Assembly: GCF_963921235.1 (NCBI RefSeq)
Contig: NC_086097.1
Coordinates: 25,112,001 to 25,176,000 of the forward strand
Reading direction: 5' to 3'
Source: Mobula hypostoma
Taxonomy: Eukaryota
DNA: 64,000 nucleotides
The notes under the pieces are model-generated. The model did not search any database and was not told where the DNA came from. It was given only the letters and a program-made list of their open reading frames with translations. Below, in pieces: positions 830 through 54,193 of the stretch (positions are counted from its first letter, which is position 1; each line of letters opens with the position of its first letter). The translations under genes were made by a program, and so were the position numbers.

Positions 830-1470
830 CACAGGTTTGGTTATTTCACATTATGACACATTGTGCCCACTCTTGGAATATTACTTTCAGTTCTGATTGC
901 CTCATCATAGGAGGATATGGAAGCTTTAAAGAGAGTGTAGAGGAGGTTTGCCAGGACGCTGCCTATATTACAGATCATATCTTATGAGCGCAAACACAAG
1001 GAAATCTGCAGATGCTGGAATTTCAAGCAACACACATAAAAGTTGCTGGTGAACGCAGCAGGCCAGGCAGCTTCTCTAGGAAGAGGGTCTAGGAAGGGTC
1101 TCGGCCCGAAACATCAACTGTGCCTCTTTCTAGAGATGCTGCCTGGTCTACTGCGTTCACCAGCAACTTTTATATCTTATGAGGATAGGTTGAGAAAGCT
1201 AGGGCTTTTCTCTCTGGAGCGAAGGAGGATGAGGAGGTGACTTGAGATAGATGTACAAGATGATAAGAGGCATTGATCGAATAGATAGCCAGAGACTTTA
1301 TCTCATCCAGAAATGGCTAGTACAAGGACGCAAAATTTTAATGCAACTGAAGGGAAGTACTGGGGGGTGTCAGAGGTAAGTTCTTTACACAGAGAGTGGT
1401 GATGTCCTGCCAGGAGTGGTGGCATTGGCAGATACATCAGGGTCATTTAAGAAATTCATAGATAGGCACA
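830..1470 (+). mobile_element. CR1-like LINE 3' fragment (RT C-terminus), interrupted by a fold-back element
   Basis: Decayed PLLEYYFQF and YEDRLRKLGLFSLERRRMR motifs typical of the CR1 ORF2 end. Confidence 0.85.
989..1171. mobile_element. Penelope-terminus-derived mini fold-back element
   Basis: Inverted arms; 12-bp TSD ATATCTTATGAG at 977-988 and 1172-1183. Confidence 0.85.
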
Positions 1471-4319: not shown

Positions 4320-4501
4320 ACGACAGAGAACCTGCAGATGCTGGAAATCCAAACAGCACACACAAAATGCTGGAGGAATTCAGTAGACCAGGCAGCATCT
4401 ATGGGGTCCTGCTGAAGGGTCTCGTCCTGAAATGTTGACTGTACATTTTTTCATAGATGCAGCCTGGCCTGTTAGGTTCCTCCAGCATGTTATGTTTGTT
4501 G
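4320..4501. mobile_element. Penelope-terminus-derived mini fold-back element inside the CR1 3' UTR
   Basis: Inverted arms; probable TSD CTCATCATG (4311-4319) / CTCACCATG (4502-4510). Confidence 0.75.
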
Positions 4502-11169: not shown

Positions 11170-11770
11170 CCAGGATAGCTGATCTGCCCTCCAACACTAG
11201 GTTGCCCTCCTACCCAAGATCCACAAACCTGACTGTCCGGGTAGGACCATTATTTCTGCCTGCTCCTGTCCAACTGAACTTGTATCCACATACCTCGACT
11301 CCATTCTATCCCCCTTGGTTCAGTCACTTCTTACTTACATCCATAACACTTCACATGCTCTTGACCCCCATAACAACTTTCAATTTCCTGGCCCTGACCG
11401 CTTCATTTTCACCAGTTGCTATACACATCTATCCCCTATCCAGAAGGCCTTAAAGCTCTCTGCTCTCTCCTGACAACAGACACAACTTATTCCCCTCTAC
11501 CACCACCCTCATCCATCTATTAGAACTGGTCCTCAACCTAAACAATTTCTCTTTTGGCTCCTCCCACTTTCTCCAATCTCAAGGTGCAGCCATGAGCACC
11601 CACATGGACCCCAGCTATGCTTATCTTTTCGTTGGTTATATCGAACAGCCCATGTTCGGAGCCTTTCCTGGTAATGCTCCCCAACTCTTTCTGCGTTATA
11701 TTAACAATTGCATTGGTGTTGCTTCATGCGCTCATGCTGAGCTCATCAGTTTCCTCAACTTTGCCTCTGG
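11170..11770 (+). mobile_element. Old Penelope-like element RT fragment
   Basis: G(A)AMSTHMDPSYAYLFVG...LFLRYINNCIG matches PLE RT G.AMG...PSYA.LF.G / RYIDD motifs. Confidence 0.8.
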
Positions 11771-11844
11771 TGGAGGAGCTAGGGAAGATGGTGCTAGTGG
11801 ATTTATAGATCAAGGCGACTTATTTCAATTTGTTCACAAAACAG

Positions 11845-12750
11845 CTTATTAGGCCATTCAACCCATTGAGTCTGCTCCACCCTTTCATCATGGGTGACTT
11901 AACCCCATTCTCCTGACTTCTCATAATCTTTGAAGCCCTTACTGATCAAGAACCTATCAACCTTTGATTTAAATATACCCAATGACCTAGCCTTCAAAAT
12001 CATCCATGACAACGAATTCCACAGATTCACCACCCTCTGGCTAAAGAAATTTCTCCTCATCTCTGTTCTAAAGGGATATCCTAGTATTCAGAAGTTGTGC
12101 CCTCTGCTCCACCACTGTAAGAAACATCCTCTCCATGTCTACTGTTCAATATTCAATATGTTTCAATGAGATTTCCCCCACCCCGGTGAGTACAGGCAAG
12201 TACTTTAGTTCCTTAAGATCGTCACAGCCAGGGGAAGTAGCGAGGATAAGCTCCCAGTACCTATTAAATGCTCCCAATGACGTGCATCTCAAATAGCCTC
12301 TGACAACCAAGTCCAGCTCCTGGCATTCACCTGTGGCTAAGCTACTAAGCCCAGTAGGACTGTTTCTACTGACAAGAGAAGGACAAAGGTGGGTTACTGG
12401 TGCCTTAAATCAGTATCTGCCTTTCCATTGGACTCATCAACTGTGTGGAGGTAGGGAGCCTGCCGCATAGGCAACAGCTTCCTCTCCACATTGTACTGCC
12501 CTGGCTTGCTTATCACATAGAATACTGGGAGGAAACAACCATGGCCGACCCCAACCAACCAAGGGCCTCAATGACAGGCCCAGAGTCATCAAATGCTCCT
12601 CAAAAGTTGACCCTTTCGTTTGTGAGGTTATTGTGGTGAATCTCCTGTGGACCCTCTCCAATGCCAGTATATCCTTCCTTAGATAAGAGACCCAAAACTT
12701 CTCACCATTCTCAAGTGCGGTTTGACCAACTCCTTAGAAAGCCTCAGCCA
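11845..12750 (-). mobile_element. CR1-like 3' fragment interrupted by an insertion at 12198-12573
   Basis: GAATTCCACAGATTCACCACCCTCTGGCTAAAGAAATT signature; ERVHRRFT motif. Confidence 0.8.
12198..12573 (+). mobile_element. ~375-bp non-coding insertion, possibly derived from an RTE-type 5' leader
   Basis: Flanked by ACAGGC (12192-12197 / 12574-12579), splitting CR1 sequence; family call is from resemblance only. Confidence 0.45.
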
Positions 12751-13179: not shown

Positions 13180-13351
13180 CACTCACAACACGCTGGAGGA
13201 ACTCAGCAGGTCGGGTAGCATCCGTGGAAAAGATCGGCCCCGATACGTCGACCGATCTTTTCCACGGATGCTGCCCGACCTGCTGAGTTCCTCCAGCGTG
13301 TTGTGAGTGTTGCTTTGACCCCAACATCTGCAGATTATTTTGTGCTTATGA
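13180..13351. mobile_element. Penelope-terminus-derived mini fold-back element (divergent subfamily)
   Basis: Near-perfect ~58-bp inverted arms; 13-bp TSD TCACCCACAGGTT at 13167-13179 and 13352-13364. Confidence 0.88.
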
Positions 13352-20248: not shown

Positions 20249-20474
20249 TAACACACACGAAATGCTGGAGGAACTCAGCAAGATAGGCAACATCTATGCA
20301 AGAGAGTAAACAATTGAGGTTTCGGTCCGAGACCCTTCATCAGACCTGTTGAAGGGTCTCAGCCCGAAATGTCGACTGTTTATCCATTTCTGTCATGCTG
20401 CCTGGCCTGCTGATTTCCTCTACCGTTTTGTGTGTGTTGCTTTCAATTTCCAGCATCTGCAGATTTTTTCACGT
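20249..20474. mobile_element. Penelope-terminus-derived mini fold-back element
   Basis: Inverted arms with apex near 20345; TSD AAAAGATTATCTG (20236-20248) / AAAAGATAATTTG (20475-20487). Confidence 0.8.
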
Positions 20475-22300: not shown

Positions 22301-22579
22301 GAGTTGTATTGGGATTTGAAGTTGTCTCTCAATTATTATTCCATGTTTGTAATGTACAGCTATGAAATCAATGTACTGCCAAATCATACACCACTTCAGA
22401 TATTCCAGCCAACATACCTCTCACAATAACATAGACTGCTTCAGTCCATTATTCCAACGCCATTGTAAAACTGTGTGAAAATCGTTTGTACTTTTGTCAA
22501 TTGCTGGTCAAAAATATCTTATTGACTGCAAAGTGCTTTCACACATATTGAGGATGTAAAATGTGCGATAAAAATTCAT

Positions 22580-22798
22580 GCAACACACATCAAAGTTGCT
22601 GGTGAACGCAGCAGGCCAGGCAGCATCTGTAGGAAGAGGTGCAGTCGACATTTCAGGCCGAGACCCTTCGTCATGAAGGATCTCGGCCTGAAACATCGAC
22701 TGCGCCTCTTCCTACAGATGCTGCCTGGCCTGCAGCGTTCACCAGCAACTTTGATGTGTGTTGCTTGAATTTCCAGCATCTGCAGAATTCCTGTTGTT
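22580..22798. mobile_element. Penelope-terminus-derived mini fold-back element
   Basis: ~92-bp inverted arms with apex near 22672; perfect 16-bp TSD TGCGATAAAAATTCAT at 22564-22579 and 22799-22814. Confidence 0.92.
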
Positions 22799-23271
22799 TG
22801 CGATAAAAATTCATAACATTTTTATTACACAACATTTGTACCACACAACAGATTGATATGGGTCTAAAGGATTTCTCAACCATTTCCATTCCTTGAGACT
22901 AACGAGAAGGATTTCTTATTATGTGACCATATGTTATATATTGACCATAACATGGCCCCAATTACATACTTTCGTACATTTATGCTATTAAATTATGATT
23001 TTTTTCAGAATATTATGTCTCTGATGCTTTGTCCCTGTGAGGTAAACTTTTTAATGCACCTGTTAATGCATGTACAGTACTGTGCAAAAGTCTTAGGGTC
23101 ATATACATAGCTAAGGTGTACAGTACTGTATTTGTCAATGTGGAGTGGAGAACAAGTCTGTAAGTCTGGTAGGAGTAAAGGATGTTGGGAATGGCGAGGG
23201 TGATACTTGCTAGTCGCCCAGCACAATCCTCGTTGACTTGATTTCATGCAAAGTGACATATTTCTCTGTAT

Positions 23272-23476
23272 AACAAACAAAAGAAAAACTGCAAATGCTG
23301 GATCCAAGCAACACACACAAAATACTGGAGGAACTCAGCAGGTCAGGCAGCATCAATCAAAAAGAGTAAATAGTCAACGTTTTGGGCCGAGACCGTTCAT
23401 CAGGTCCTGATGAAACATCTCAGCCTGAAACATTCACTGTTCACTCTTTTCCAAAGATGCTGCCTGACATGCTAAG
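23272..23476. mobile_element. Penelope-terminus-derived mini fold-back element inside a SINE tail
   Basis: Apex near 23405; TSD TATTTCTCTGTAT (23259-23271) / TATTTCACTGTAT (23477-23489). Confidence 0.8.
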
Positions 23477-24389
23477 TATTTCACTGTATGTTTTGATGTA
23501 CATATGACAAATAAATCTAATCTTTAGAACAGGGACAAAGTGAAGACGGGGGAAACAGCAACAGGTAAAGATCTTTCAATCATTTCAAAGGAATAACAAT
23601 CTTTTTTTCAATGAGTGAAAAGGAATTCATTTTTTTTTCTACATGATTGATTTGGAATATGGGATACTGTGATCATATTACTGTGATTTAAATGTAATGT
23701 AATTCGTATTATTTACTTGTATCCTTATGAATTTTGTATTTGTATTCATGCAATTTATATAATATCAATAAAAATTTTGAAAAAAGGAAAAGGAATAACA
23801 AATAGGCTTTGCAGGCTGTGAGCAAATTTTGTTCTGCGCCTTGGAGTGCGAGCTGTAAGGACTGACTTAATCAATTCCTGGGGAAAGCTTTCTTCCAAGA
23901 GAGACTGAATACATATTTTTTTCTTTACTTATTGGAGCTCAGAAGACTGAGAGATCATCACAGTAAGACAGAGGTTTTGAGGAGGGTTGAGCAGGTAGGA
24001 ATTAAAAGGATGTTTTCACAGGCTGAAGAATTCAGAGGTTTGGAGAATGGTGTCAAAATAAGACAATTACAATGAGGAGAAATTTCTTTACAGTTGCAAA
24101 AATATCTGGAGATCTCTTCCAAAGAATCCAGTGTGAAGTGGCAGGTACAATTGGTAGATGGAGATCTCGCATAAAATTCTCTCCACTTAAGTTTCAGCTG
24201 CCCTCCTCTCCCTTCCCAGTTTGTTCAGATTATAAATGAACTCACTCATCTTAGTTTCCAGTTCAACCAACTGTATTTTCTTGATGCACGTCCTCACAGA
24301 CTTATTATCTCTACTCAACACATCCTTTTCTTTTTGTTTATTTAGGACTTTACCTTAGTTGGCAGAGAAACTTAACATTTCAGCAATAC

Positions 24390-24930
24390 ACACTCAGATT
24401 GGAGGAGTAACACCTCATATTCTGTCCGAGTAACCTCCAAGCTGATGGCATGATCACTGATTTCTCTAACTTCCAATGATTCCTCCCTTCTCTCCTTCTC
24501 TCTTTTACTATTTACCTAATCTGGTTTCCCTCTCATTCCTTTCCTTTCCACACCTGTCCATCGCCTCCCTCTGGTGCCTCTCCTCCACTTTCTTCCATTG
24601 TCTACTCTCCTCTCCTATCAGATTCCTTCTTCTTCAGTCCTTTTCCACCTATCACCTGCCAGCTCCTCACTTCACCCTCACACCCCCCAACCCAATAACC
24701 TTGCCCCTCACCTGATCTCACCTATCATCGGTCGGCTTCTACTTCTTCCTCTCCCTCCATCTTCTTATTTTAGTTTCTGCCCCCTTCCTTTCCAGTCCTG
24801 ATGAAGGATCTCAAGCAAGAATGTCAACTGTTTACTTCCCTCCATAAATGTTGCCTGACTTGATGAATTTTCCAACACTTTGTGTCCATTGCTCAAAATT
24901 TCCAGCATTTGCAGAATCTCTTGTGTTTAA
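24390..24930 (+). mobile_element. Old Penelope-like 3' end (ORF end, pyrimidine-rich UTR, degenerate hammerhead, terminus)
   Basis: LRLEE*HLIFC..NLQADG homologous to the 53720-53803 ORF end; CAGTCCTGATGAAGG at ~24793. Confidence 0.8.
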
Positions 24931-25684: not shown

Positions 25685-25773
25685 AGCAAACACGAGGAAA
25701 TCTGCAGATGCTGGAAATTCAAGCAACACACACAAAATGCACAAAACACACAAAACCAGCATTTTGTGTGTGT
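25685..25773. mobile_element. Very short Penelope-terminus fold-back element
   Basis: TSD TGCACTATGTAA (25673-25684) / TGCACTGTGTAA (25774-25785). Confidence 0.75.
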
Positions 25774-25910
25774 TGCACTGTGTAATGATTTGATTTGTAT
25801 GAGTATGCAAAACAAGTTTTTCACTCTGTCTCTGTAACCAATTCTAATTCCAACCTGTAGGTTTCTTCAAATTCAAAACACAAGAGGTTCTGCAGATGCT
25901 GGAAATCTTT

Positions 25911-27427
25911 TGTCGTCGCCGTTAGGTCGCATCTGGAATTTCCAGTTGGCGGATGATTTCCCTTGATGCCACTCTGTCCCAACACTTATCGACGACATCC
26001 CTAGTCTTGTCCAGCTTGGTCCAATCCTCAATGTTACCTAGCCACACACATAAAAATTGCTGGTGAACGCAGCAGGCCAGGCAGCATCTCTAGGAAGAGG
26101 TACAGTTGACATTTTGGGCCGAGACCCTTCATCAGGGCTAACTGAAAGAAGAGGTAGTAAGAGATTTGAAAGTGGGAGGGGGAGGGGAGATCCGAAATGA
26201 TAGGAGAAGACAGTCGACTGTACCTCTTCCTATAGATGCTGCCAGGCCTGCTGTAAACACGAGTTTACATTACAGCAGCAATTTTTATGTGTGTTGCTTG
26301 AAATTCCAGCATCTGCAGATTTCCTCGTGTTTGTGTTTTCCAGCCACGTTGTTCTTTGCCTTCCTCTTCCTTTCTTTCCCTCCACCTTTCCATATAGCAA
26401 GAACGACAAGATGTTATCTCTCCGCGTAACGTGTCCACAATAAGCAACTTTTAACTTCATGATCTTCTCCAGCAGTATCCATGCTCTATTAACTTCGGAC
26501 AAAAACCTCTCATTTGAAACTTTCTCTACCCAGCTGATCTTCAACCTTCGTCGATAGCACCACATTTCAAAAGCCTTAATTCATTTCATGTCATCCTTCT
26601 TCAGGGTCCATGTTTCTGACCCATACCTCAGCACCGACCATACATAACACTCGAGGAAATGGATTCTACTTTGGATGTCTACCTTCCAATTGCATAGTAG
26701 ATCTTGTAGCTTCATGAACTGGGTCTTAGCTATACCTATTCTCCTTCTGATCTCAACTTCACATCTCCCGTCATCTGTCAGACAATTGCCAAGAAAATCA
26801 AACTTTCGCACCTGTTCAATGTCTTGTCCATTCACTTGTAATGATACCATCATGAATGAGTCTTTAGTGTTTGTTTTGCTTACCTCCATTGACTTTGTTT
26901 TCTTAGGGTTGATTTTTAGTCCGTATTCAAGGCTTTCCCATTCACTTTATTCAGCATAATTTGCAGTTCACATTCGCTGTCAGCTAACAATACGGTGTCG
27001 TTCGCATACCTGTGTTATCCACCTTCTGGCCTCCAATTGAAATACCTGTCTCCTGATGATCGCATTCCCGAAAAATCCATTCTCTGTAGAGGTTGAACAA
27101 ATCTGGCCAGCCAACACAGCCTTGCCTTACGGCTCGTTTAATACCTGCCCATGGTGACAGCTCATTTTCTACCCTGACCGCTGCTTTCTGTTTCCAATAT
27201 AAGTTCCTTATTATTTGCACATTCTCCCATCCCAGATTGTACTTGTTCAGCACCTCTATTACTTTCTCGTGTCTTACTTTATCAAAAGCCTTTTCATAGT
27301 CAATAAAGCATAAGTAGATGGTCTTTTGTGCCTCAATGCATCTCTCCATGTTGTTTCTCAACGCAAATATCCCTTCCCTTGTTCCTGAGCCCTTACGAAA
27401 ACCAAACGGTGTTTCTTCAATTTCATC
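25911..27427 (-). mobile_element. 5'-truncated RTE-clade LINE (RT region)
   Basis: FGFRKGSGTREGIF..YLCFIDYEKAFDKV..VRQGC; EIRRRIGIAK..LRYGSETWTL; TSD GCTGGAAATCTTT (25898-25910) / GCTGAAAATCTTT (27428-27440). Confidence 0.92.
26046..26333. mobile_element. Penelope-terminus fold-back element nested in the RTE
   Basis: Inverted PLE termini; degenerate TSD TGTTACCTAGCCAC / TGTTTTCCAGCCAC. Confidence 0.8.
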
Positions 27428-28729
27428 GCTGAAAATCTTTAGCAACACATATAAAGTGTTGGAGGAATCCAGCAAGTCATGCAGCATCTATGAGGAGGAA
27501 TGAAGTCATCATTTTGGCCGAGACCCTTCATCAGGACTGGAAAAGAAAGAATTTTTCCAGAAATTTGTGTGTGTTCATCAAATCCAAGTTTGCAGGGCTG
27601 ATAGGCTGAGATTCTATTAGTATGTTGTGGTCAGTATGGGACTTAAAGTGTTAAAGACCATCGGCAGTTGTGCCTCTGCAGGCCATCCGTTTTGGAAATC
27701 CCTCTCACCACTTTCCTCAAAATCGCCTTTGACCAAGCATTTGGTCAGTCTCCTGTAATCTCTCCCTCTGCACCAATGTAATGATGCCACAACATACTGC
27801 CTTGGGATAATTAGAGGGTATTAAACACATGATAGCAAGGACTGTCAATACACAGACAGAGGTGTAATTACTGATTATGTTCTCAAGTCACTGGAGCTGT
27901 CAGCCAAAGATCAATAGACAGGACTTCTACCAGGGATAGAACATCTCCCAGACCAGAGAAGGGAGTTCAAACATCTAGTCCGACTAGTTCAGTCACATCT
28001 TTTAGACAAATTGTTAAGTGCAGGCCATCTACTCCCATGAAGGTGACCCTGTGATAGGACATTAAGAAAGATAGAAAGACAGATACTTGATTGATCCCAA
28101 AGGAAATTACAGTGTCTCAGCACAAGTGCACAGATATACAAATATACAAGAAAGAATAAAAAACAAGTTACCTTAAACAGTCTATCAGGAGGGGGTCATC
28201 ACTTCCCTGGCACCTAAATCATCCTTGGCATTCCCTTATACTACCTATTCCTCAACCAACATTACAAAAGCAACATTAGTAACCCTAATGCATGTGTTGT
28301 ACTGTTCTATGTTCTATGTTTCATCACAATTCCTGAACAGCCTGGATCTTCAAGACCTACAAGACTTTGTAAAATCTAAGTCAGTTATAATGGTCATGAA
28401 AATGTCTAGAACCTTCTCAAGACAGAACTGGCCCCAAATGTCACCCATACTTTTCTCACATTTACATAAAATCAGTACAACCTATCAGTCGTGTGACCTT
28501 TTAGCAGCACGTACCACACAGAACTGATATAGTTTCTAACATTTAATTGTGGACTAAAACATATATATCTTATTACAAGTGGCATTGCAGTAGATTATAG
28601 ATTTGCCTCAAGGCTCCATTTAATCTTCAATAAATCGCAATGCAATAAACGCAACCTATAGACTCACTTTCAAAGACTCTACATCTCATGTTCTCACTAC
28701 TATTAATTTAGTTTTTATTGTATTTCACA

Positions 28730-29240: not shown

Positions 29241-30639
29241 GTCTTCTCACGCACATTGGTTGTGAGTCTTTGTGTGTAGTTTTTCATTGATTCTTTTGCA
29301 TTTCTTTGTTCTACTGTGAATCCTACTTAATCGGTATGACGGAAACGTGCTATTTGTGCTATTTGCTATGTACGGTGCGCTGCGTGCAGTTGGTAATGTG
29401 TGTTGCACCTTGGCCCTGAAGGAATGCGGTTTCATTTGACTGTATTCATGTATGCCTCAACGATAATTCAACTTGAACTTGAATACCCACAAGAAAAGGA
29501 ACCTTAGAGTGGTATATGGTAACTGATACATACCATATGCACTTTGATAATAAATTTACCTTATACTTCCTACTTTCTTTGACCTATTTCAAAAAATTTC
29601 TTCTTGGCATTTTTTTCCACCCAACTCTTGCCTTGATCTTTATCTTATTTCATTACTTCTTCAGTTTAATGAAAATGAAGATCTATGAGATTAGTATCAG
29701 CATAGACACTTCCATCCTCCTCACTACTACAGACCAGCAGTTATGGCAGTGTTTCTGACTGAGAATACCTTCTAAAAGTGTAACATGCAGTACATTGTTT
29801 TCAAGGAACTATATCACATATTGGATACACAAATCAGTTACCAAATCCAAGTGTTTCCAAAGTTGCATTCACTGAGACCCAAGAGATTCTGCACATGCAA
29901 GAAATCTGGATCAACACACACACACAAAATGCTGGAGGAACTCAGCAGGTCAGGCAGCATCTATGGAGGGAAAAGAGCAGTTGAAGTTTCTGGCCGAGGC
30001 CTGATGAGTCTATGCATTCTTCTATAATATGGTAACCAGAGGTGCACACAGTACTCTGTGCTTTCTGACTAAAGTTAGTTCACAGGACCATAAGACATAA
30101 GAGCAGACTTTGACCATTCAGTGCATTAAGTCTGCTCTGCCATTCAATTATTGCTGATTATCCTTCTCAACCCTATACTTCTGTCTTCTCCCTGTAATCT
30201 TCAACACCCTTACCAATCAAGACCCTATCAACCTCTGCTTTAAATATACTTTGGCCTCCACAGCCATCTGTGGCAATAAATTCCACAGATTTTCCACTCT
30301 CTGGCTAAAGAAATCCCTCCTCATCTCTGTCCAAAAGGAAAATCCTTATATTCTGAGACTGTGCTCTCTGGTCCTAGACCGTCCCACTATTGGAAACATC
30401 CTTTCTATGTCCACTCTATCTAGTCCTTTCAATGAGAGTTTTACACAATGAGAGCATAACTTCTTACTGTTATACGTCAACACCCCTACCAATGAAGGCA
30501 AGCATGACATATCTCTTCTTTACCACACTTTCCACTTGTGTCGCCACTTTCAGTGAACTATGCAACTGGACCCCAAGATCCCTTTATACCTCAATGCTAT
30601 TAAGAAATCTACCATTAACTGTATACTTTCTCATTTCTC

Positions 30640-31030
30640 CGAAGATCGTCACCTGGTCACGTTGGAGAGGCTTGTGAGCTCCTGAGATCCCAAGAGCAAT
30701 GTTGTCTGAAGCTTTGCACCTGGTAGGGTCATCCACAATAGTAAGGTCAAAGACAAAGAGCGATCTAAACAAGATATCAATGGCGGAGCTTTTGAAAGAT
30801 GATGACACATCACAGTGGCAGTGAAGGTGGAGGAAGGCTGCCAAGGTGAAGGGTCCCCAGTCATTTTGCACTTCATGCCTCTGGACTCTGATCCCAATCT
30901 GTCAAGGACCATGTGGCGGCTGTCTATGCATCACCCTCCCCATGTTGAACAAAGTCATACACAGGCGTTCTTCATTAAGGGAACAACCTCTCAGGAGAAT
31001 ACCAGACTCAACTTGAGTGATTGCTCTTGT
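30640..31030 (+). mobile_element. Insertion resembling an RTE (Rex3/Expander-like) 5' leader
   Basis: CGTCACC..GGAGAGGCTTG..GATCCCAAGAGC.ATGTTGTC..CCTGGTAGGGTC pattern; interrupts a minus-strand CR1 fragment. Confidence 0.45.
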
Positions 31031-32494
31031 ACAAGTTTGCCCTTTCATTTAACCTCGCAAAGTGCCACACTTCACACTTAGCCAGATTAAACTCCCTCCC
31101 CCCTATAGATGCTGCCTGACTTGCTGAGTTCCTGCAGCATTTTGTGAGTGTTACTTAAGATTTCCAGCTTCTGAAGAATCTCTTGCATTTATATATCCTG
31201 CTGTATCTTGTGATAGGCCTTTACTCAGTCCATAACTCCACCAATCTTGGTGAAAAACACAAAGTTCCTAATATACTCATCTATATTTTCATTATAAACA
31301 AAAGAGGTCCACTGCATTGTAAAAAATAAAACACTGACACAGACCTCCAGCCGGAATAACAGCTTTCCCGCTCTACCCTCAGTCATTTATGAGCAACCCA
31401 TGAGAAATCTCAAACTTGCAATCAGTGCTTCTCTCATGACTTTGAGAGTCTTATGCACAGAAGGTCAGCATTCATTCTTACATACACAAGTCTGTGCTAG
31501 TACCACACATAGAAAAATCATTCTCCTTTGACTATATTATTATGCTTCATGGCAACCAAGAATCCCTAGGGATTTGTCTTTTAGATGGAACACTATCCAA
31601 GGAGCATACATAGGGCATAAAACAGGCCTAGTCCTATCAATGCACACTTGGACCATAGCCTCCATACCAATCTCATCCATGTACATATCCAGTCCTCTCT
31701 TAAATGTTGCAATCAAACCCACATCCACCACCTCTACTGGCAACTCATTCCACACTCTCATCACCTTCAGTGAAGAATATTTCATCTTTCATGCTTAACC
31801 CATGATGTCCAGTTCTAGCCTCACCCAATCTCAATGGGAAAATCCTGCTTGCAGTTACACTATCAATACCCACTCTTTAATTTGTTTTCCTCCATCAAAC
31901 CTCAACTCACTCTCCTACGTTGTGGGAATAATGTCCTAACCTGTTCAACCTTTCACTATAATTCAGGTCCTAAATTCTTGGCAATATCCTTGTACATTTT
32001 CTCTGTACTCTTTCAATCTTATTGATATCTTTCTTATAGGAGGGTGAGCAGAACTGCACACAGTACTGAGAATCAGATTCAGAATCAGGTTTAATATCAC
32101 TAACATATGTCATGAAATGTATTGCTTTTTTGGCAGCAGTACTCTAAAATTACAATAAAAATATATAATTAAATTAAATATGTAGTGCAATAAGAGATCA
32201 AAAATATTGAGATACTATCCATGGTTGGTTCATTGTCTGTCCAGAAATCTGATGGTGGAGAGGAAGAAGCTCTTTCTAAAATGGTGCGTGTGTGTATTCA
32301 GGGTTCTGTGGCTCCTCTCTGATGGTAGCGGTAAGAACAGGTCATGCCTGGGCGATAGAGGTCCTTAATGATGGATGCTATCTTTTTGAGGCATCACCTT
32401 TTGAGGATACCTTCGATGGTAGGAAGGTGATGGAGTGGGCTGAGTCTGAAACACTCTACAGTCTTTTCCAATTCTATGTAGTGGCCCTTCCAAA

Positions 32495-38206: not shown

Positions 38207-39230
38207 TTGTCAAGGAGGCCCTGGAGGAATGGCGACACTGGCTGGAGGAGGCAGAGCATCCATTCTTGGTCTGGACAGATCACAAGAAACTCTCCTATAT
38301 TCAGGATGCTAAGAGACTCAACTCTCGTCAAGCCAGGTAGGCTCTTTTCTTCACATGGTTCAATTTCGTCCTCACTTATCGTCCCAGCAGCAAGAATACA
38401 AAGGCCGACACTCTCTCCCAGCAGTTCGATAGATCTAAGGACAATGCCAATCCAGAGCCCATTCTTCCTCGCTCGTGTATCGCTGCTCCGGTGATCTGGG
38501 GAATAGAGGCAGAGGTGAGGGCTGCCCAAAAATCAGATCCAGGCCCAGATGGGTGACCTCCCAACCGGCTGTTCGTCCTTGCTGTGGTGTATTCCAAAGT
38601 GTTGGAATGGGGCCACTCCTCCCGTCTGGTTGGACATCCGGGAATTCAACAGACTCAGGAGTTTATAAAGAGACAATTTTGGGGGCCATCTATGTCCCAG
38701 GACGTCCACAACTTTGTATCTGCCTGTCCCACCCGCGCTCGGAACAAGATATCACGCTGGCGTCCTGCGGGTCTGTTATGTCCACTGCCTGTGCCCCACC
38801 AGCCCTGGTCCCACCTCTCAGTAGATTTTATCACTGGTCTGTTCCCATCTAATGGAAACACCACCATTTTGGTCATTGTGGATCGATTTTCCAAGGCTGC
38901 CCACGTCATTGCCCTCCCCAAGCTCCCATCAGCTCGTGAGACTGCCACACTCATGGTTCAACATGTGGTCAGGCTCCATGGGTTTCCTCAAGACATAGTG
39001 TCTGATCGTAGACCACAGTTCACTTCCCGCTTTTGGAAGGCTTTCTGCTCTGTTGTAGGAGTCACGACCAGCCTCTCAACTGGCTTCTACCCCCAATCTA
39101 ATGGCCAGACTGACAGAGTGAATGAGGAGTTGGAGACAACCCTGCGCTATCTTGCCTCTTCCAAGCCCACGTCCTGGAGTTCCCATATGGTTGGGGCAGA
39201 GATCGTCCACAATAATCTCCAGTCGTCCTC
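38207..39230 (+). pseudogene. Ty3/Gypsy (sushi-like) pol remnant: RNase H C-terminus and integrase
   Basis: [27 protein letters not shown] zinc-binding region; SVDFITGL, IVSDRRPQF, PQSNGQTDR core; in-frame stops near 38338 and 38555. Confidence 0.92.
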
Positions 39231-39605
39231 CACTGTCGCCGGCAGCCCATTCCATGCACTCACCACTCTGCGTAAAAAACCTACCCCTGACATCTCCTCT
39301 GTACCTTCTCCCAAGCACCTTAAACCTGTGCCCTCTTGTGTCAGCCATTTCAGCCCTGGGAAAAAGCCTCTGACTATCCACACGATCAATGCCTCTCATC
39401 ATCTTATACAACTCTATCAGGTCACCTCTCATCCTCCATCACTCCAAGGCTAAGTTCACTCAACCTGTCTTCATAAGGCATGCTCCTCAATCCAGGCAAT
39501 GTCCTTGTAAATCTCCTCTGCACCCTTTCTATGGTTTCCACATCCTTCCTATAGTGAGGCAACCAGAACTGAGCACAGTACTCCAAGTGGGGTCTGACCA
39601 GGTAT
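39231..39605 (-). mobile_element. CR1-like 3' fragment truncating the Gypsy integrase
   Basis: MRGDLIELYKMMRGIDRVD..TRGHRFKV motif. Confidence 0.85.
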
Positions 39606-42708: not shown

Positions 42709-44333
42709 ACATTGAAATACAGTAGAATGCATAATTTGCATCAATGGCCAACACAATCCAAGGATGTATGGGGGCAGTCTGCAAATGTTGCTATGCTTCT
42801 GATGCCATCTTGGTAGGCCTACAACTTTCAAACCCGTACATCTTTAGAAACTGGATCACCCTAAGAAAACTCACAAAGTTAGGGGAAGAACGTGCAAACT
42901 CCTTACTCAGAGCAATGGAACTGAACTCAGGCCACTGGCATTGGAACAATATTATGCTAACTAGCCACTACTCTGTGGTGCCACCTCAAATCTACAGCAA
43001 CTGCAGTTTCTTTAAAATTTTTGGCACAATTTCCTCACCCAACTGCCTCACTACAGCATCTGTAATTTCTTTGAAAGTTTTGGTTCAATTGCCTCCCCCA
43101 CTTAGCTGGAGACAGTACACATGAGATACTGCTTATAATTAACAATTACATTTTTCACTCAACAAAAGGATAAGAGAAATAAAGAGTAATACACACAAAA
43201 TTCTGGAGGAACTCAGCAGGCCAGGCAGCATAAAAGGGAAAAGAGTAAACAGTGGATGTTTCAAGCCGAGACCCTTCATTAAGATAGAGATAAACAGTTG
43301 GCCTGTGAGTTATGGCTCAGTGTTTACAGCATGTGCTAATTATAAATAGAGGTTCTCCAGAGTATCGTCTTGAAGATACTTGAATTGCAAATAGATCTTC
43401 CTAAAAATCCACTCAGCAAGCATCCTGCAATAAGAGAAGGCTCGAAAGAAATCTGAAGACTAAGGGCCACACTAACAAGCTTTAGAATCAGCAGCACAGG
43501 GAGGGAGATCAAGCACTCATGATCACTAAAAGGATTGAATTCTCTTACACCGTTTTGTGTAATATTGTTATTCCACTTGTGAGGTCTGTGTGTTCTTTTC
43601 AATTACAAAGTCAGTCACCAATAATCTGTGTACTAGCCCTTGATTTGGAGACGTGGTGTCTTATTATGACAATCAGTCATTTCTGAGCACTCAGACCTCC
43701 CCTCTTCATTTGCACTCTTTAAAGAATTATTTCGAGATATAGTAAGGTCCTTCCGGCCCAACGAGCCTGTGCCATCCAATTACATCCATGTGACCAATTA
43801 ACCTACTACCTCATACTACGTCTTTGGAACGTGGAAGCAAACTGGAGCACCCAGAAGAAACTCACTTGCATCATAGTATTTCTATACGGGTAGTGCCATT
43901 TCTAGAAAGTGTCTGGGATCCACAAAAACAAAGCAGAGGAAAATTTGCAAGCAGTGAAAACATTGACAGTTGATATTCAATAATTGCAAAGAAATTCATT
44001 TTGGTACAAAATATCATTAGAATATATCACAGAGTGACCTTTTATGGTTGAAATGCTGCAAGTTATGATAACAAATGGAGAAATACAAATTTCAGAGTAG
44101 CTTGTCATTGTGCAAGGACGCTGAGAAAGGTCCGAAATAAAAGAGAGACACTGTCTAGCCTAGCGGTCATCGGAGTAGCGTAAGTCAGAGTAGTAGGGCT
44201 TTGGCTCATCGGTGTTTCGGCGAGGACGGGCCTAGGCAAGGTAAGTTACTTCTTTTTCCCCCTCTCACAAGAATAGTAGGTATGACTGTGAGGCCAGTTT
44301 TCTACTCTGGGTGCCAGATGTGGGATGTCCGGG

Positions 44334-46483: not shown

Positions 46484-47121
46484 ATATCCTGAAAAGGGAG
46501 GGTGAGCAGCCAGAGGTCGTGGTACATATTGGTAACAACGGCATAGGTAGAAAAAGGATGGAGGTCCTGAAAGCAGAACACAGAGAGTTAAGAAGGAAGC
46601 TGAGAAGCAGGACCTCAAAGATAGTAATCTCAGTATTGCTGCCTTTGTCACGTGACAGTGAGTACAGGAATAGAGTGAGGTGGAGGATAAATGCGTGGCT
46701 GAAGAAATGGAGCTAGGGGCAGGGTTTCAGATTTTTGGATCATTGGGACCTCTTCAGGGGCAGGTGTTGTTGCACGGGGCGACTGAGGAGAACCCAAGTG
46801 CAGGACACCGGTACGTCGACTGAGTTGGGGATGCTGGCGTAGACGTGAACGTAGAACAGCAAACCACAAGGAGACAGGATCTACAGGGACTATCTTGAAA
46901 CTAGAGCAGAACTTGGAACTAAACTTAAAACTAACGGTTCTAAGCAGATGAGAGAACTAAGTATCACACAAGAATAGACCAAAAAACTGGCAACCTGTGT
47001 AGTAACGCCATCGTACTTACTTCACAGTCTCTGATGCAAACCAGGTGTACCGTAATCAAGCAACACACATCAAAGTTGCTGGTGAACGTAGCAGGCCAGG
47101 CAGCATCTATAGGAAGAGGTG

Positions 47122-47158
47122 CAGTCGACGTTTCAGGCCGAGACCCTTCGTCAGGACT
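47122..47158 (-). ncRNA. Minimal type I hammerhead ribozyme motif (core intact)
   Basis: AGTC-CTGACGA-AGGGTCTCGGCCT-GAAA-CGTC^GACT: helix I AGUC/GACU, CUGANGA and GAAA boxes, palindromic ACGU helix III, GUC triplet. Confidence 0.8.
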
Positions 47159-49323
47159 AACTGAAGGAAGAGTTACTAAGAGATTTGAAAGTGGGAAGGG
47201 GAGGGGGAGATCCGAAATGATAGGAGAAGACAGGAGGGGGAGGGATGGAGCCAAGAGCTGGAGAGGTGATTGGCAAAAGGGGATACGAGAGGATCATGGG
47301 ACAGGAGGCCCAGGGAGAGGAAGGAAAATTGGTGGGGGGGGGGGACCCAGAGAGTGGGCAAGGGGTATAGTCAGAGGGACAGAGAGAGAAAAAGGAGAGA
47401 GAGAGAAAGAATGTGTGTATAAAAATAAATAACGGATGGGGTACGAGGGGGAGGTGGGGCATTAGCGGAAGTCAGAGAAGTCAATGTTTATGCCATCAGG
47501 TTGGAGGCTACCCAGATGGAATATAAGGTATTGTTCCTTCAACCTGAGTGTGACTTCATCTTCACAGTAGAGGAGGCCATGGATAGACACGTCAGAATGG
47601 GAATGGGATGTGGAATTAAAATGTGTGGCCACTGGGAGATCCTGCTTTCTCTGGCGGACAGAGCGTAGGTGTTCAGCAAAACGGTCTCCCAGTCTGCGTG
47701 GGGTCTCGCCAATATATAGAAGGCCACATCGGGAGCACTGGACGCAGTATATCACCCCAGCTGACTCACCGGTGAAGTGTCGCCTCACCTGGAAGGACTG
47801 TCTGGGGTCCTGAATGGTGGTGAGGGAGGAAGTGTAAGGGCATGTGTAGCACTTGTTCCGTTTACAAGGATAAGTGCCAGGAGGGAGATCAGTGGGGAGG
47901 GATGGGGGGGGGACGAGTGGACGAGGGAGTCGCGTAGGGAGCAAGTCCTGCGGAAAGCAGAGGGGGGGGGAGGGAAAGACGTGCTTAGTGGTGGGATCCC
48001 GTTGGAGGTGGCAGAAGTTACGGAGAATAATATGTTGGACCCGGAGGCTGGTGGGGTGGTAGGTGAGGACCAGGGGAACCCCATTCCTAGTGGGGTGGCG
48101 GGAGGATCGAGTGAGAGCAGATGTACGTCAAATGGGGGAGATGCGTTTGAGAGCAGAGTTGATGGTGGAGGAAGGGAAGCCCCTTTCTTTAAAAAAGGAG
48201 GACATATCCCTCGTCCTGGAATGAAAAGCCTCATCCTGAGAGCAGATGTGGCGGAGACGGAGGAATTGCGAGAAGGGGATGGCATTTTTGCAAGAGACAG
48301 GGTGAGAAGGGGAATAGTCCAGATAGCTGTGTGAGTCAGTAGGCTTATAGTAGACATCAGTGGATAAGCTGTCTCCAGAGATAGAGACAGAAAGATCTAG
48401 AAAGGGGAGGGAGGACCCCACTAGGAATAGGGTTCCCCTGGTCCTCACCTACCACCCCACCAGCCTCCGGGTCCAACATATTATTCTCCGTAACTTCCGC
48501 CACCTCCAACGGGATCCCACCACTAAGCACATCTTTCCCTCCCCCCCTCTCTCTGCTTTCCGCAGGGATCGCTCCCTACGCGACTCCCTTGTCCATTCGT
48601 ACCCCCCATCCCTCCCCACTTATCCGTGTAAGCGGAACAAGTGCTACATATGCCCTTACACTTCCTCCCTTACCACCATTCAGGGCCCCAGACAGTCCTT
48701 CCAGGTGAGGCAACACTTCACCTGTCAGTCGGCTGGGGTGATATACTGCGTCCGGTGCTCCCGATGTGGCCTTCTATACATTGGCGAGACCCCACGCAGA
48801 CTGGGAGACCATTTTGCTGAACACCTACGCTCTGTCCACCAGAGAAAGCAGGATCTCCCAGTGGCCACACATTTTAATTCCACATCCCATTCACATTCTG
48901 ACATGTCTATCCACGGCCTCCTCTACTGTGAAGATGAAGCCACACTCAGGTTGGAGGAACAACACCTTATATTTCTTCTGGGTAGCTTCCAACCTGATGG
49001 CATAAACATTAGCTTCTCTAACTTCCGCTAATGCCCCACCTCCCCCTTGTACCCCATCCGCTATTTATTTTTATACACACATTCTTTCCCTCACTCTCCT
49101 TTTTCTCCCTCTGTCCCTCTGACTATACCTCTTGCCCATCCTCTGGGTCCCCCCCCCTTTTCCTTCTCCCTGGGCCTCCTGTCCCATGATCCTCTCATAT
49201 CCCCTTTGCCAATCACCTGTCCGACTCTTGGCTCCATCCCTCCCCGTCCTGTCTTCTCCTATCATTTTGGATCTCCCTCTCCCCCTCCCACTTTCAAATC
49301 TCTTACTAACTCTTCCTTCAGTT

Positions 49324-49360
49324 AGTCCTGACGAAGGGTCTCGGGCTGAGACGTCGACTG
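49324..49360 (+). ncRNA. Hammerhead ribozyme motif, GAAA box mutated to GAGA
   Basis: AGTC-CTGACGA-AGGGTCTCGGGCT-GAGA-CGTC-GACTG. Confidence 0.65.
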
Positions 49361-50350
49361 TACCTCTTCATAGAGATGCTACCTGGCCTGCTGCGTTCAC
49401 CAGCAACTTTGATGTGTGTTGCTTGAATTTCCAGCATCTGCAGAATTCCTCTTGTGTACCGTAATTAAGTAAACCAGCAGCAATTGGAAATCTAATGGCT
49501 GAAATTAGGGCATAATCAGGGAGAAAGGAGCATTAAAGGGGAACAACCAAACAGAACCATGACAGATGTGACCTGTACAAAAAGGACGGGTTGCACTTGA
49601 ATTCGAGGGGGACCAATATCCTGGTGGGGAGGTTTGCTAATGCTATTGGGGAGGGTTTAAACTAGATTTGCAGCGGGGTGGGAACTGAACTGAAGAAGCG
49701 GAGGATGGGGAGGTTGAAGCACAAGTAGAGACGGCTTGTAGGGAGTTTGTGAGGAAGTTTATGCAGATGTTAGAGCAAAGATGCACTCAGCCTGATAGTT
49801 TGAGAGGTGTCTATTTTAATATAAGAAGAATCATAAACGAGGTGGATGAACTTAGATCGTGGAACTATGACATTGTGGCCATTCCAGAGACTTGGATGTC
49901 TCGGGAGCAGTAATGGCTGCTTAGTGTGCCAGACTTTGGATGTTTCAAAAAGAACAGAAAGGGAGGCAAAAGAGCTGGGGGTGTGGCATTGCTAATCAGG
50001 GATAGTGGCAGGGCTACAGAAAAGGAGGAAATCATGGAGGCATGATCTACTGAGTTAGTGTGGGTGAAAGTCAGAAACAGGAAAGGGGCAATAACTCTAC
50101 CACAGCATTGGAGAGGGATTGGAGCAGACAAGTTAGGAAGGCGTTTAATTGGAGTAAGGGGAAATATGAAGCTATCAGGCAGGAGCTTGGGAGCATAAAT
50201 TGGGAGCAGATGTTCTCAGAGAAATGCACAGCAGAAATGTGGCATATGTTCAGGGAACGTTTGCATGGAGTTGCACATAGGTATGTTCCATTGAGGTAGG
50301 GAGAGGATGGTAGATTTTCAACAGCCTTTGTACAACATGGTTCCTATACC

Positions 50351-52490
50351 CTACCATCCTTTCCCTGTCTCATTGGAAAGTACCTACACAGAACGCCACA
50401 CAAATATCCCCTGAACTTCTGCCACATTTCTGCTGTACATTTCCCTGAGAACATCTGCTCCCAATCTATGCTTCCAAGCTCCTGCCTGATAGCTTCATAT
50501 TTCTCCTTACTCCAATTAAATGCTTTCCTAACTCGTCTGCTCCAATCCCTCTCCAATGCTATGGTAAAGGAGATAGAATTGTGATCACTATCTCCAAAAT
50601 GCTCTCCCACTGAGAGACCTAACACCTGACCAGGTTCATTTCCCAATACCAGATCAAGTACAGCCTCTCCTCCTATAGGCTTATCTACATATTGTGTCAG
50701 GAAACCTTCCTGATCACACCTAATAAACTCCACCCCATCTATACCCCTTGCTCTAGGGAGATGCCAATCAATATTGGGGAAATTAAAATCTCCCATTGTG
50801 ACAACCCTGTTATTACTGCACCATTCCAGAATCTGTCTCCCTATCTGCCCCTCGATGTCCCTGTTACTATTGGGCGGTCAATAAGAAACACCCAGTAGAG
50901 TTATTGACCCCTTCCTGTTTCGAACTTCCACCCACAGAGGTTCAGTAGATAATCCCTCCATGACTTCCTCCTTTTCTGCAGCTGAGACACCACCTTTGAT
51001 CAACAGTGCCACGCCCCCACCTCTTTTGACCCTTTCCCTGTCCTTTCTGAAACATCTAAAGCCTGGCACTCTAAGTAGCCATTCTGCCCCTGAGCCATCC
51101 AAGTCTCTGTAATGGCCACTACATCATAGCTCCAAGTACTGATCCACGCTCTAAACTCATCCGCTTTGTTCATGATACTCCTTGCGTTAAAATAGATACA
51201 TCTCAAACCATCAGTCTGAGTGCATCCCTTCTCCATCACCCACCTATCCTCCCTCTCACACTGCCTACGAGTTTTCCCTATTTGTGGCCAACCACCCCCT
51301 CCTCCGATTCGTCAGTATGGTTCCCATCCCCAGCAATTCTAGTTTAAACTCTCCCCAAAAGCCTTAGCAAACCTCTCTGCCAGGATATTGGTCTCCCTCG
51401 GATTCAAGTGCAACCCATACTAATGGTACAGGTCACGCCTGCCCCAAAAGAGGTCCCAATGATCCAGAAATCCGAATCCCTCCCCCCGCTCCAATCTCTC
51501 AGCCACACATTTATCCTCCACCTCACTCTATTCCTATACTCACTGTCGCATGATACAAGCAGTAATCCCGAGATTACTATCCTTGTGGTCCTGCTTCTCA
51601 ACTTCTTTCCTAACTCCCTGTAGTCTGTTTTCAGGACCTCCTTCCTATGTTGTTGGAACCAATATGAACCACGACCTCTGGCTGTTCACCTTCCCACTTC
51701 AGGATATCGTGGACGCGATCAGAAACATCCCGGACCTTGGCACCTGGGAGGCAAACTACCATCTGTGTTTCTTTCCTGAGTCCACAGAATCACTTGTCTG
51801 ACCCCCTAACTATAGAGTCCCTTATCACTGCTGCCATCTTCTTCTTTTCCCTGCCGTTCTGAGCCACAGGGCCAGACTTTATGCCACTGTTGCTTCCCCC
51901 AGATAGGTCCCCCCCCCCCAACAGTACTCAAGCGGGAGTACTTACTTTTAAGGGGACCAGCCACAGGGATACTCTCTAGCATGTGACTCTTGCCCTTCCC
52001 TCTCCTGACTGTTACCCACTTATCTGTCTCCCAAGGCCCCGGTGTGACTACTTGCCTGTAGCTCCTATCTATCAGCTCCTCACTTTCCCTGACCAGTCAA
52101 AGGTCATCAAGCTGAAACTCCAGTTCTCTAACCCAGTCCCTAAGGAGCTGCAGCTTGGCGCACTTGACACAGATGTGGCCATCCGGGAGCCTGGGTATCT
52201 CCTGGACATCCCACATCTGACACCCAGTACCGGAGTTCTGTCCTCACAGACATACTTCCTGCTCCTATTCTTCACAAGTAACTTACCTCGCCTTGACCTG
52301 TTATCACCGAAGCCCTGTGAACCAAAGCCCTCTCTATAAAGCTGTCTTCTTTTTAAATTCTTCCCGCCGGTCTAACTCGCTGACATCTACATGCCTCTGC
52401 TGTCTGTCTCGATCAAACTGCTGAAAGAAAAATGCTCTCCTTTTAAATTCTTCCCACCGAACTAATTCGTTGATGTCCACGCACCTGCAC
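50351..52490 (-). mobile_element. 5' part of a CR1-like LINE (UTR, ORF1 esterase, APE endonuclease)
   Basis: YFNARSIMNK..VVAITETW; MGDFNFPNIDW..LDLVL..GDSDHNSISF. Confidence 0.92.
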
Positions 52491-52792: not shown

Positions 52793-54193
52793 CTCGTTGA
52801 CTTTATTAACTTTGCCTCCAACTTTCACCCTGCCCTCAAGTTTACCTGGTCCATTTCCGACACCTCCCTCCCCTTTCTAGATCTCTCTGTCTCTGGAGAC
52901 AGCTTATCCACTGATGTCTACTATAAGCCTACTGACTCGCACAGCTATCTGGACTATTCCTCTTCTCACCCTGTCTCTTGCAAAAACGCCATCCCCTTCT
53001 CGCAATTCCTCTGTCTCCGCCGCATCTGCTCTCAGGATGAGGCTTTTCATTCTAGGACGAGGGAGATGTCTTCCTTTTTTAAAGAAAGGGGCTTCCCTTC
53101 CTCCACTATCAATTCTGCTCTTAAACTCATCTCCCCCATTTCACGTACATCTGCTCTCACTCCATCCTCCCGCCACCCCACTAGGAATAGGGTTCCCCTG
53201 GTCCTCACCTACCACCCCACCAGCCTCTGGGTCCAACATATTATTCTCCGTAACTTCCGCCACCTCCAACGGGATCCCACCACTAAGCACATCTTTCCCT
53301 CCCCCCCCGTTTTCCGCAGGGATCGCTCCCTACGCGACTCCCTTGTCCATTCGTCCCCCTCATCCTTCCCCACTGATCTCCCTCCTGGCACTTATCCGTG
53401 TAAGCGGAACAAGTGCTACACATGCCCTTACACTTCCTCCCTTACCACCATTCAGGGCCCCAAACCGTCCTTCCAGGTGAGGCAACACTTCACCTGTGAG
53501 TCGGCTGGGGTGATATACTGCGTCTGGTGCTCCCGATGTTGCCTTTTATATATTGGCGAGACCCCACGCAGACTGGGAGACCACTTTGCTGAACACCTAC
53601 GCTCTGTCTGCCAGAGAAAGCAGGATCTCCCAGTGGCCACACATTTTAATTCCACGTCCCATTCCCATTCTGACATGTCTATCCACGGCCTCCTCTACTG
53701 TAAAGATGAAGCCACACTCAGGTTGGAGGAACAACACCTTATATTCCGTCTGGGTAGCCTCCAACCTGATGGCGTGAACATCGACTTCTCTAACTTCTGC
53801 TAATGCCCCACCTCCCCCTCGTACCCCATCTGTTATTTATTTTTATACACACATTCTTTCTCTCACTCTCCTTTTTCTCTCTCTGTCCCTCTGAATATAC
53901 CCCTTGCCCATCCTCTGGGTTCCGCCCTCATCTTGTCTTTCTTCCTGGACCTCCTGTCCCATGATCCTCTCATATCCCTTTTGCCAATCACCTGTCCAGC
54001 TCTTGGCTCCATCCCTCCCCCTCCTGTCTTTTCCTATCATTTTGGATCTCCCCCTCCCCCTCCAACTTTCAAATCTCTTACTTACTCTTCCTTCAGTTAG
54101 TCCTGACGAAGGGTCTCGGCCTGAAACATCGACTGTACCTCTTCCTAGAGATGCTACCTGGCCTGCTGCATTCACCAGCAACTTTGATGTGTG
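52793..54193 (+). mobile_element. 5'-truncated Penelope-like element (RT C-terminus, GIY-YIG endonuclease, 3' terminus)
   Basis: LPFLDL..TDVYYKPTDSHSYL; GVIYCVWCSRC.LLYIGET; 13-bp TSD TCACTACAGGAAG at 52780-52792 and 54194-54206. Confidence 0.95.
54099..54135 (+). ncRNA. Hammerhead ribozyme motif (GUC changed to AUC, probable CpG decay)
   Basis: AGTC-CTGACGA-AGGGTCTCGGCCT-GAAA-CATC-GACTG. Confidence 0.68.

Follow-up and report, generated by a model that had tools for sequence, protein, structure and literature searches.

How a short hairpin made only of the inverted 3' ends of a retroelement comes to be inserted in DNA is the question raised by a locus found in a 64-kb stretch of the Mobula hypostoma genome, referred to as the window. 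The locus had been described at first as a fold-back spanning positions 22580-22798, bordered on both sides by a perfect 16-mer, and so it is. The insert is 219 bp long, and consists of two head-to-head arms derived from the terminus of a Penelope-like element (PLE). Arms are numbered throughout by setting as 0 the first C of the CTGA box of a hammerhead motif, located at 49328. In this fold-back, denominated H5, the following components have been recognized:

22564..22579, no strand: left copy of the target-site duplication, 16 bp, matching 22799-22814 at 16/16 positions
22580..22673, minus strand: tailless arm, covering the PLE terminus between +1 and +94
22673..22798, plus strand: tailed arm, from +3 to about +128 (+132 counting 4 bases common with the duplication)
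22799..22814, no strand: right copy of the duplication, pairing with 22564..22579

The segments 22572-22669 and 22675-22772 are 94% complementary, and 85/90 aligned bases of the arms are identical. Abutting repeats were scored, here and below, against 1500 random position pairs; the null fraction for the 16-bp duplication of H5 is 0/1500.

The window was searched with 12 terminus queries, which yielded 31 merged matches. Four single-query BLAST matches of 31-49 nt (17578, 21739, 25323 and 35787) were left out before counting, and two arms of 18-22 nt, spotted by eye, were added to the remaining 27. The total corresponds to 18 terminus-bearing insertions, ten fold-backs and eight single-arm copies. 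The nine loci listed in the preliminary description are all real, and all feature head-to-head PLE 3' ends that face outward between direct repeats, but a tenth fold-back of 2.4 kb, located at 47057-49453, was missing from the list. The other fold-backs (no strand is given for these units), the simple copies discussed below and the ribozyme motif are:

989..1171: H1, subfamily A; tailed arm on the left, from +35, tailless arm on the right, from +5; 6-nt apex filler similar to the left arm; 12/12 duplication; sits in another repeat
4320..4501: H2, subfamily B; tailed arm on the left, from about +40, tailless arm on the right, from about -3; 8/9 duplication
13180..13351: H3, subfamily C; tailless arm on the left, from +30, tailed arm on the right, from +13; arms identical at 57/58 positions, with a junction of 4 nt common to both; 13/13 duplication
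20249..20474: H4, subfamily B; both arms starting at about -2 to 0 (tailed -1, tailless -2); 11/13 duplication
23272..23476: H6, subfamily B; tailed arm on the left, from -1, tailless arm on the right, from -3 and ending early, at +67; 12/13 duplication
25685..25773: H7, 89 bp; tailed arm on the left, from +75, 19-nt tailless arm on the right, from +72; inter-arm filler of about 15 nt similar to the left arm; 11/12 duplication
26046..26333: H8, subfamily A; within a LINE coding remnant; tailless arm from about -78, tailed arm from about +25; 11/14 duplication
25877..27573: H9, interrupted by a LINE inserted later (about 25910-27435); tail 25877-25909, remaining tailed arm 27436-27556, 18-nt tailless arm up to 27573; tailed arm from -20, tailless arm from +72; 12/14 duplication
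47057..49453: H10, 2.4 kb; tailless arm 47057-48414 (minus), tailed arm 48415-49453 (plus), endonuclease-coding sequence in both; 12/12 duplication, 47045-47056 and 49454-49465
24387..24926, plus strand: simple subfamily B copy, tailed; joins the B terminus to the end of the PLE ORF; 14/15 duplication
43188..43285, minus strand: simple 98-bp tailless copy, 5' end at about -3; 11/13 duplication, null fraction 0.012
52793..54193, plus strand: simple 5'-truncated subfamily A copy, non-inverted, tailless; includes the linker and the end of the endonuclease ORF; 13/13 duplication
49324..49359, plus strand: minimal hammerhead ribozyme motif, one core change, with a pyrimidine tract and AG upstream; found by eye and by pattern search

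Inserts measure 89-288 bp in the short fold-backs (minis) and 2.4 kb in H10. Since H10 has the same build and includes endonuclease-coding sequence, minis are the smallest members of a class that extends to kilobases. A three-level nesting is seen at 25863-27587, where H9 is split by a LINE (RT domain), which in turn hosts another fold-back.

The predicted protein and the ends of the element point to an endonuclease-bearing PLE. The frame 52793-53800 contains a GIY-YIG endonuclease signature with two internal cysteines (VIY..C..C..YIG, residues 240-255), and upstream of it, at residue 203, a CX4CxxC linker. The frame itself has no Pfam match at 1e-3; 93 homologues were found, the RT domain PF00078 being present in most of them and PF01541 in several, and one named homologue, from a shark, is 64% identical, which makes a cartilaginous-fish host likely. 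The optional 30-40 bp tail of PLEs is present, in the form of two end classes located about 35 nt apart. The terminus is continuous with the ORF both in subfamily A (52793-54193 and H10) and in subfamily B (24387-24926). At least three terminus subfamilies (A, B and C) are found among the arms, and both arms are of one subfamily wherever length permits a call; subfamily C (H3) is tied to the element only via its 78-85% similarity to B. A CX2-5CxxC linker between reverse transcriptase and endonuclease marks the Neptune and Nematis clades (PMC8557442), and by this criterion, rather than by a reverse transcriptase tree, the element is classified as Neptune/Nematis-type. Membership in Penelope/Poseidon in the strict sense was rejected, as it needs the linker zinc finger to be absent, and the linker is present here. 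No full-length or tandem (direct pseudo-LTR) source copy was found within the 64-kb window. A frame resembling a PLE reverse transcriptase fragment was noticed by eye at 11454-11852, with no terminus near and no Pfam match.

The terminus also carries a putative minimal hammerhead ribozyme, as described for PLEs (PMC4209133). The core pattern matches at 23407, 54103, 47154 (minus strand) and 20343 (minus strand), in addition to seven unrelated matches, and the copies at 47154 and 54103 are intact. Rfam gave no hammerhead match to the terminus, and terminus RNA folds no better than shuffled sequences (z 0.3-1.2). Rfam microRNA matches to the fold-backs were obtained below gathering scores, because of the hairpin shape. 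A scan of viral and prokaryote collections with the terminus motif gave no match; a single match in metagenomes, bacterial-looking, was discarded as fortuitous.

The two arms of a fold-back do not terminate at the same point. In arms with a tail the end falls at +127 to +135; in tailless ones it falls at +85 to +98, except for one at +67. Exactly one arm carries the tail, about 35 nt longer, in 10/10 fold-backs, a rule having p <= 0.001 if end sites were chosen independently. The earlier assumption that both arms end at one 3' end has thus been replaced by two end sites, about 35 nt apart. Single-arm copies are tailed in 5/8 cases and tailless in 3/8, and hence both ends are in use. Contigs from four sequencing runs were aligned to the 600-bp end region 48961-49560. 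Among the 24 loose-end rows listed out of 1831, such ends fall at 49455 in at least 723, 723, 349 and 81 records in the four runs, and at 49423-49424 in two runs (184 and 179; 7). A higher depth of the last 140 nt in one run, guessed to be RNA, was not used, as contigs cannot show level or start.

Two tailed arms pointing outward, 1.1 kb apart and with other repeats between, lie at 29874-31188, and are probably two insertions. The hypothesis of one two-tailed insertion was rejected: the sole flanking repeat, at a null fraction of 0.012, is 7 bp long and runs into the tail, and the region was therefore counted as two copies. If a single event, it is an exception to the one-tail rule. By eye, the stretch of tail that separates the two end sites is seen to hold a palindrome of 8-10 bp (49435-49444 and equivalents) in all three subfamilies, and a TG-rich motif is common to both end sites. 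The H5 target word (22564-22579) is similar to the element at both junctions, having 4 nt in common with the tail end and matching at 7/8 positions the sequence after the inner site.

Abutting direct repeats are found at all ten fold-backs. Most had been reported to be 12-16 bp long; repeats are confirmed at all nine loci, but the measured range is 9-16 bp. The null fraction is <=0.012 at 7/9 listed loci, and 8/10 fold-backs. Taken alone, the duplications of H2 (4320) and H8 (26046) are weaker (0.051 and 0.075), but they have other support, from uninterrupted paralogues and from the host LINE frame, respectively. Ten insertion sites, H9 being left out, were modelled without the insert and matched to repeat paralogues spanning the site in the window. 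Spanning paralogues were found at 6/10 sites, all colinear and with the duplication word present once. Uninterrupted host-repeat paralogues are five for H1, seven for H2, five for H3, seven for H6, two for H7 and nine for the simple copy at 52793; the window contains no spanning paralogue for H4, H5, H8 and H10. When the insert and one duplication copy are removed from H8, the reading frame of the host LINE runs open across the site. That empty sites already contain both direct repeats is contradicted at 6/9 listed loci, the focal H5 not being among them. Each fold-back is best explained as a single insertion of the Neptune/Nematis-type PLE, featuring a duplication, two fixed ends and one tail.

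As MITEs, the fold-backs are short, self-complementary, abundant, and located between direct repeats; they differ for unequal ends, for the varying length of duplication and insert, for the varying apex and for the retroelement terminus. Assignment to DNA-transposon MITEs was discarded, because terminal inverted repeats are not equal, one arm having about 35 extra nt in 10/10 cases, and because neither duplications (9-16 bp) nor copies (89-288 bp and 2.4 kb) have a fixed length. The proposal that they are PLE products of retrotransposition holds, as termini are contiguous with the GIY-YIG ORF, duplications vary and ends are unequal.

We consider it likely, though far from certain, that the two ends of a staggered cut each prime reverse transcription, and that they do so at different, fixed positions along the RNA. 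Nicks made by the endonuclease in the two target strands would be 9-16 bp apart; of the 3' ends so released, one would prime on the element RNA at the outer site (that of the tail) and the other at the inner site, paired priming being probably mediated by a protein dimer. Both cDNAs would stop early, and would then be end-joined head to head, with 0-4 nt of overlap or a short templated filler. One cDNA kept alone would give rise to a simple truncated copy. The PLE protein of an anole, modelled as a dimer, acts in vitro on both strands, nicking and extending them; its two start sites are internal to the RNA, lie next to each other and bound the tail, and it uses uncleaved RNA as template (PMC11167929). 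The start site shows no apparent difference between top and bottom strand (PMC11167929), and the strict one-tail rule is therefore not predicted by that alone. The case is made from ten events in one window and, by analogy, from an in vitro model of another clade (Poseidon), and is held as fairly probable within these bounds.

The relative extension of the arms is informative. The tailless arm reaches further into the element than the tailed one in H1 (about 30 nt), H2 (about 40 nt), H8 (about 100 nt) and H10 (312 nt), and is nested in the tailed arm in H3 and H9. Overall, each arm has private sequence in 4/10 fold-backs, the tailless arm is nested in two, and four are near ties. Since in 4/10 fold-backs each arm includes sequence absent from the other, simple copying of one arm into the other does not account for these pairs. 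The twin-priming origin proposed at the outset gains from these non-nested pairs, which favour separately templated cDNAs, but has to be amended in that priming takes place at two sites, one per arm, and not at a single 3' end.

By eye, the arms overlap at the apex by 4 nt in two of the ten fold-backs, H1 and H3, and mostly by 0-1 nt elsewhere, and the apex fillers of H1 and H7 are similar to the adjacent arm. The apexes of H4, H5 and H6 are near-perfect palindromes, and that of H8 includes a 12-bp perfect palindrome (26206-26217), centred on the predicted hammerhead cut. This single case is compatible with an uncut template and a 1-nt overlap, or else with a template that had been cut and a cDNA end that snapped back. 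Palindromic apexes are also what would be expected if an antisense transcript primes itself, forming a hairpin, the endonuclease leaves a one-sided tail by an offset cut, and the product enters a staggered break. Self-priming was put forward to account for PLE copies that are joined head to head and have palindromes at the junction (PMC3846280), the tail has been ascribed to endonuclease resolution (PMC8557442), and the two combined account for one tail per event. However, a self-primed copy should nest one way, whereas the longer-reaching arm is tailless in four events and tailed in two; moreover, the two end sites of fold-backs recur in simple copies, and tail ends match the in vitro start sites of reverse transcription (PMC11167929). 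We regard this origin as unlikely.

Two observations bear on the template of the arms. The tailless-arm junctions, 11 in all, have 16 bases common to target and template, a marginal excess (p 0.012-0.079, two-sided null). The H10 arms are 94.2% alike, and 93.6% and 94.5% similar to a separate copy; being no closer to each other than to the latter, they do not support a single shared RNA. They agree against the separate copy at five non-CpG sites, and side with different copies at three to four others; in the three-way comparison private differences are 39/28/32.

Arm starts were placed partly by eye. Among mini arms, 8/18 start in the 9-nt window from -3 to +5, at the 5' edge of the hammerhead (scan p = 1.2e-4), paired arms not being independent. 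The cluster is seen with tailless arms alone (5/9, p = 0.003) and not with tailed arms alone (3/9, p = 0.39), and the simple copy at 43188 starts inside the same window. A second, loose group of starts is found at +25 to +41, near the predicted ribozyme cut at +27/+28, whereas the main cluster is located some 25-30 nt upstream of that cut. The latter coincides with the first strand of helix I of the hammerhead, upstream of which both long subfamilies have a pyrimidine tract and AG, and it also matches an initiator consensus. In D. virilis Penelope, an intron ends at the equivalent point (PMC4209133). Contigs show no depth step at the 5' edge of the hammerhead (8.0 vs 8.5 million), depth of DNA contigs being a poor measure. 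A more speculative step of the twin-priming reading is that mini arms would halt at this edge because the template RNA starts, or is blocked, there.

Minis might alternatively be long palindromic insertions like H10, the centres of which were deleted later. Long palindromes are unstable in general, H10 proves that long insertions exist, and the apex fillers of H1 and H7 fit repair; yet later deletion leaves unexplained the pile-up of ends at -3 to +5, the near-symmetric apexes, and a simple copy having the same 5' end, and we deem it improbable. A single cDNA, primed at the tail, might instead snap back and be copied into the second arm. H3 fits, as its nested tailless arm is nearly identical to the other and joined through 4 nt, and H9 is nested too. 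The process is unable to make H1, H2, H8 and H10, the second arm having there 30-312 nt absent from the first, and most apexes share, by eye, just 0-1 nt; as a general origin it is highly improbable.

Apexes fall in nine distinct types among the ten fold-backs. That their positions differ, as stated in the preliminary description, is correct with the exception of H4 (20249) and H6 (23272), the apexes of which differ by only 1 nt. Matching arms of the two are 72.9% and 78.6% alike, crosswise values are 80.9% and 70.6%, and the background is 76.4 +/- 4.8%. Nine apex types and the lack of extra similarity between H4 and H6 arms support the conclusion that most fold-backs were made independently. 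Copying of few master hairpins as units, MITE-like or by retrotransposition, could be seen in the nearly coincident H4 and H6 apexes and in the tailless-arm start common also to H2, but is very improbable, as correctly anticipated, given the number of apex types, the three subfamilies, the varying duplication length, the H4 and H6 arms no more alike than background and, weakly, because contigs break at palindromes and two of the runs had reached saturation, the finding of one opposite-strand joint, at single-locus depth, among the 15 joints listed out of 88.

A stronger version of the twin-priming reading may be envisaged, tentatively and with more doubt than belief. PLE insertion could be obligately asymmetric, one dimer applying its two active sites to a single RNA at two set positions, 35 nt apart and one for each target end, whereby any two-armed product would bear a single tail, and frequent minis could be the run-off from initiation near the RNA 5' end, at the initiator- or splice-acceptor-like first strand of the hammerhead. 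If true, a single rule would account for both tail and inverted repeats of PLEs, and cartilaginous-fish genomes would represent a large natural readout of the reaction.

In L1 twin priming, two primers from one staggered cut lead to an inverted, truncated insertion flanked by a target duplication. The second L1 primer is set at an internal position that varies, and the resulting parts show hardly any overlap. In contrast, the second site is here fixed, at about 35 nt from the first, and consequently arms overlap and form a hairpin. An inverted 5'-truncated copy with a one-sided tail of 30-40 bp and a target-site duplication is a typical PLE insertion (PMC3846280, PMC8557442, PMC2377424). PLE inversions in Adineta vaga and Drosophila virilis are similarly head-to-head, with a tail on one arm, a duplication and a variable inverted part, whereas arms are here often cut to 20-170 nt, with no ORF between. 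The tail is called optional, or said to occur often, in the portions of these three papers drawn on here, whereas it marks one arm in 10/10 of our fold-backs; duplications are 8-10 bp long in the rotifer examples (PMC3846280), and 9-16 bp here. In Schistosoma mansoni, opposite-strand minimal hammerhead pairs 100-700 bp apart have been taken as truncated PLEs (PMC4209133); analyses of duplication, tail or apex do not accompany them in the pertinent part of that paper. The Anolis Poseidon element (PAc) likewise nicks and extends both strands, and has two internal start sites bounding the tail, but belongs to another PLE clade, and inverted products are undescribed in the sections of PMC11167929 drawn on here.

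Architecture (inverted copy, one-sided tail, duplication), both-strand priming and the two in vitro start sites are thus already published, as judged from the portions of those papers used here. In a mostly open-access literature, neither PLE mini-hairpins in cartilaginous fish nor PLE twin priming were found, nor a strict one-tail count, a nesting test or an explicit tie to the two in vitro start sites. The origin of the PLE inverted repeats and one-sided tail has been named as an open question (PMC8557442). Fold-backs can be read whole and are abundant, being 10/18 terminus-bearing insertions in 64 kb, and at least 124,186 contigs of one run matched the 600-bp end region. They yield well-defined counts, namely of tail state, of arm nesting and of apex position, and hence a readout for the open question of mechanism; tabulated over the whole genome, these counts would tell twin priming from self-priming. 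They are also open to mislabelling as MITEs or microRNA precursors.

Other repeats of the window are worth mentioning. An old inverted LINE-like duplication, with arms 78-84% alike, an apex of about 30 nt and a 325-nt gap in one arm, is found at 49563-51441; it begins 100 bp from the right end of H10, and has no PLE terminus at its ends. A remnant of an LTR-retrotransposon integrase (Pfam rve, Integrase_H2C2) is located at 38557-39453. A 520-bp stretch at 58262-58784 is self-inverted (74%); by eye no terminus and no duplication are seen, its inner pair matches a dispersed repeat, and its outer arms are similar to the pyrimidine-rich PLE 3' region.
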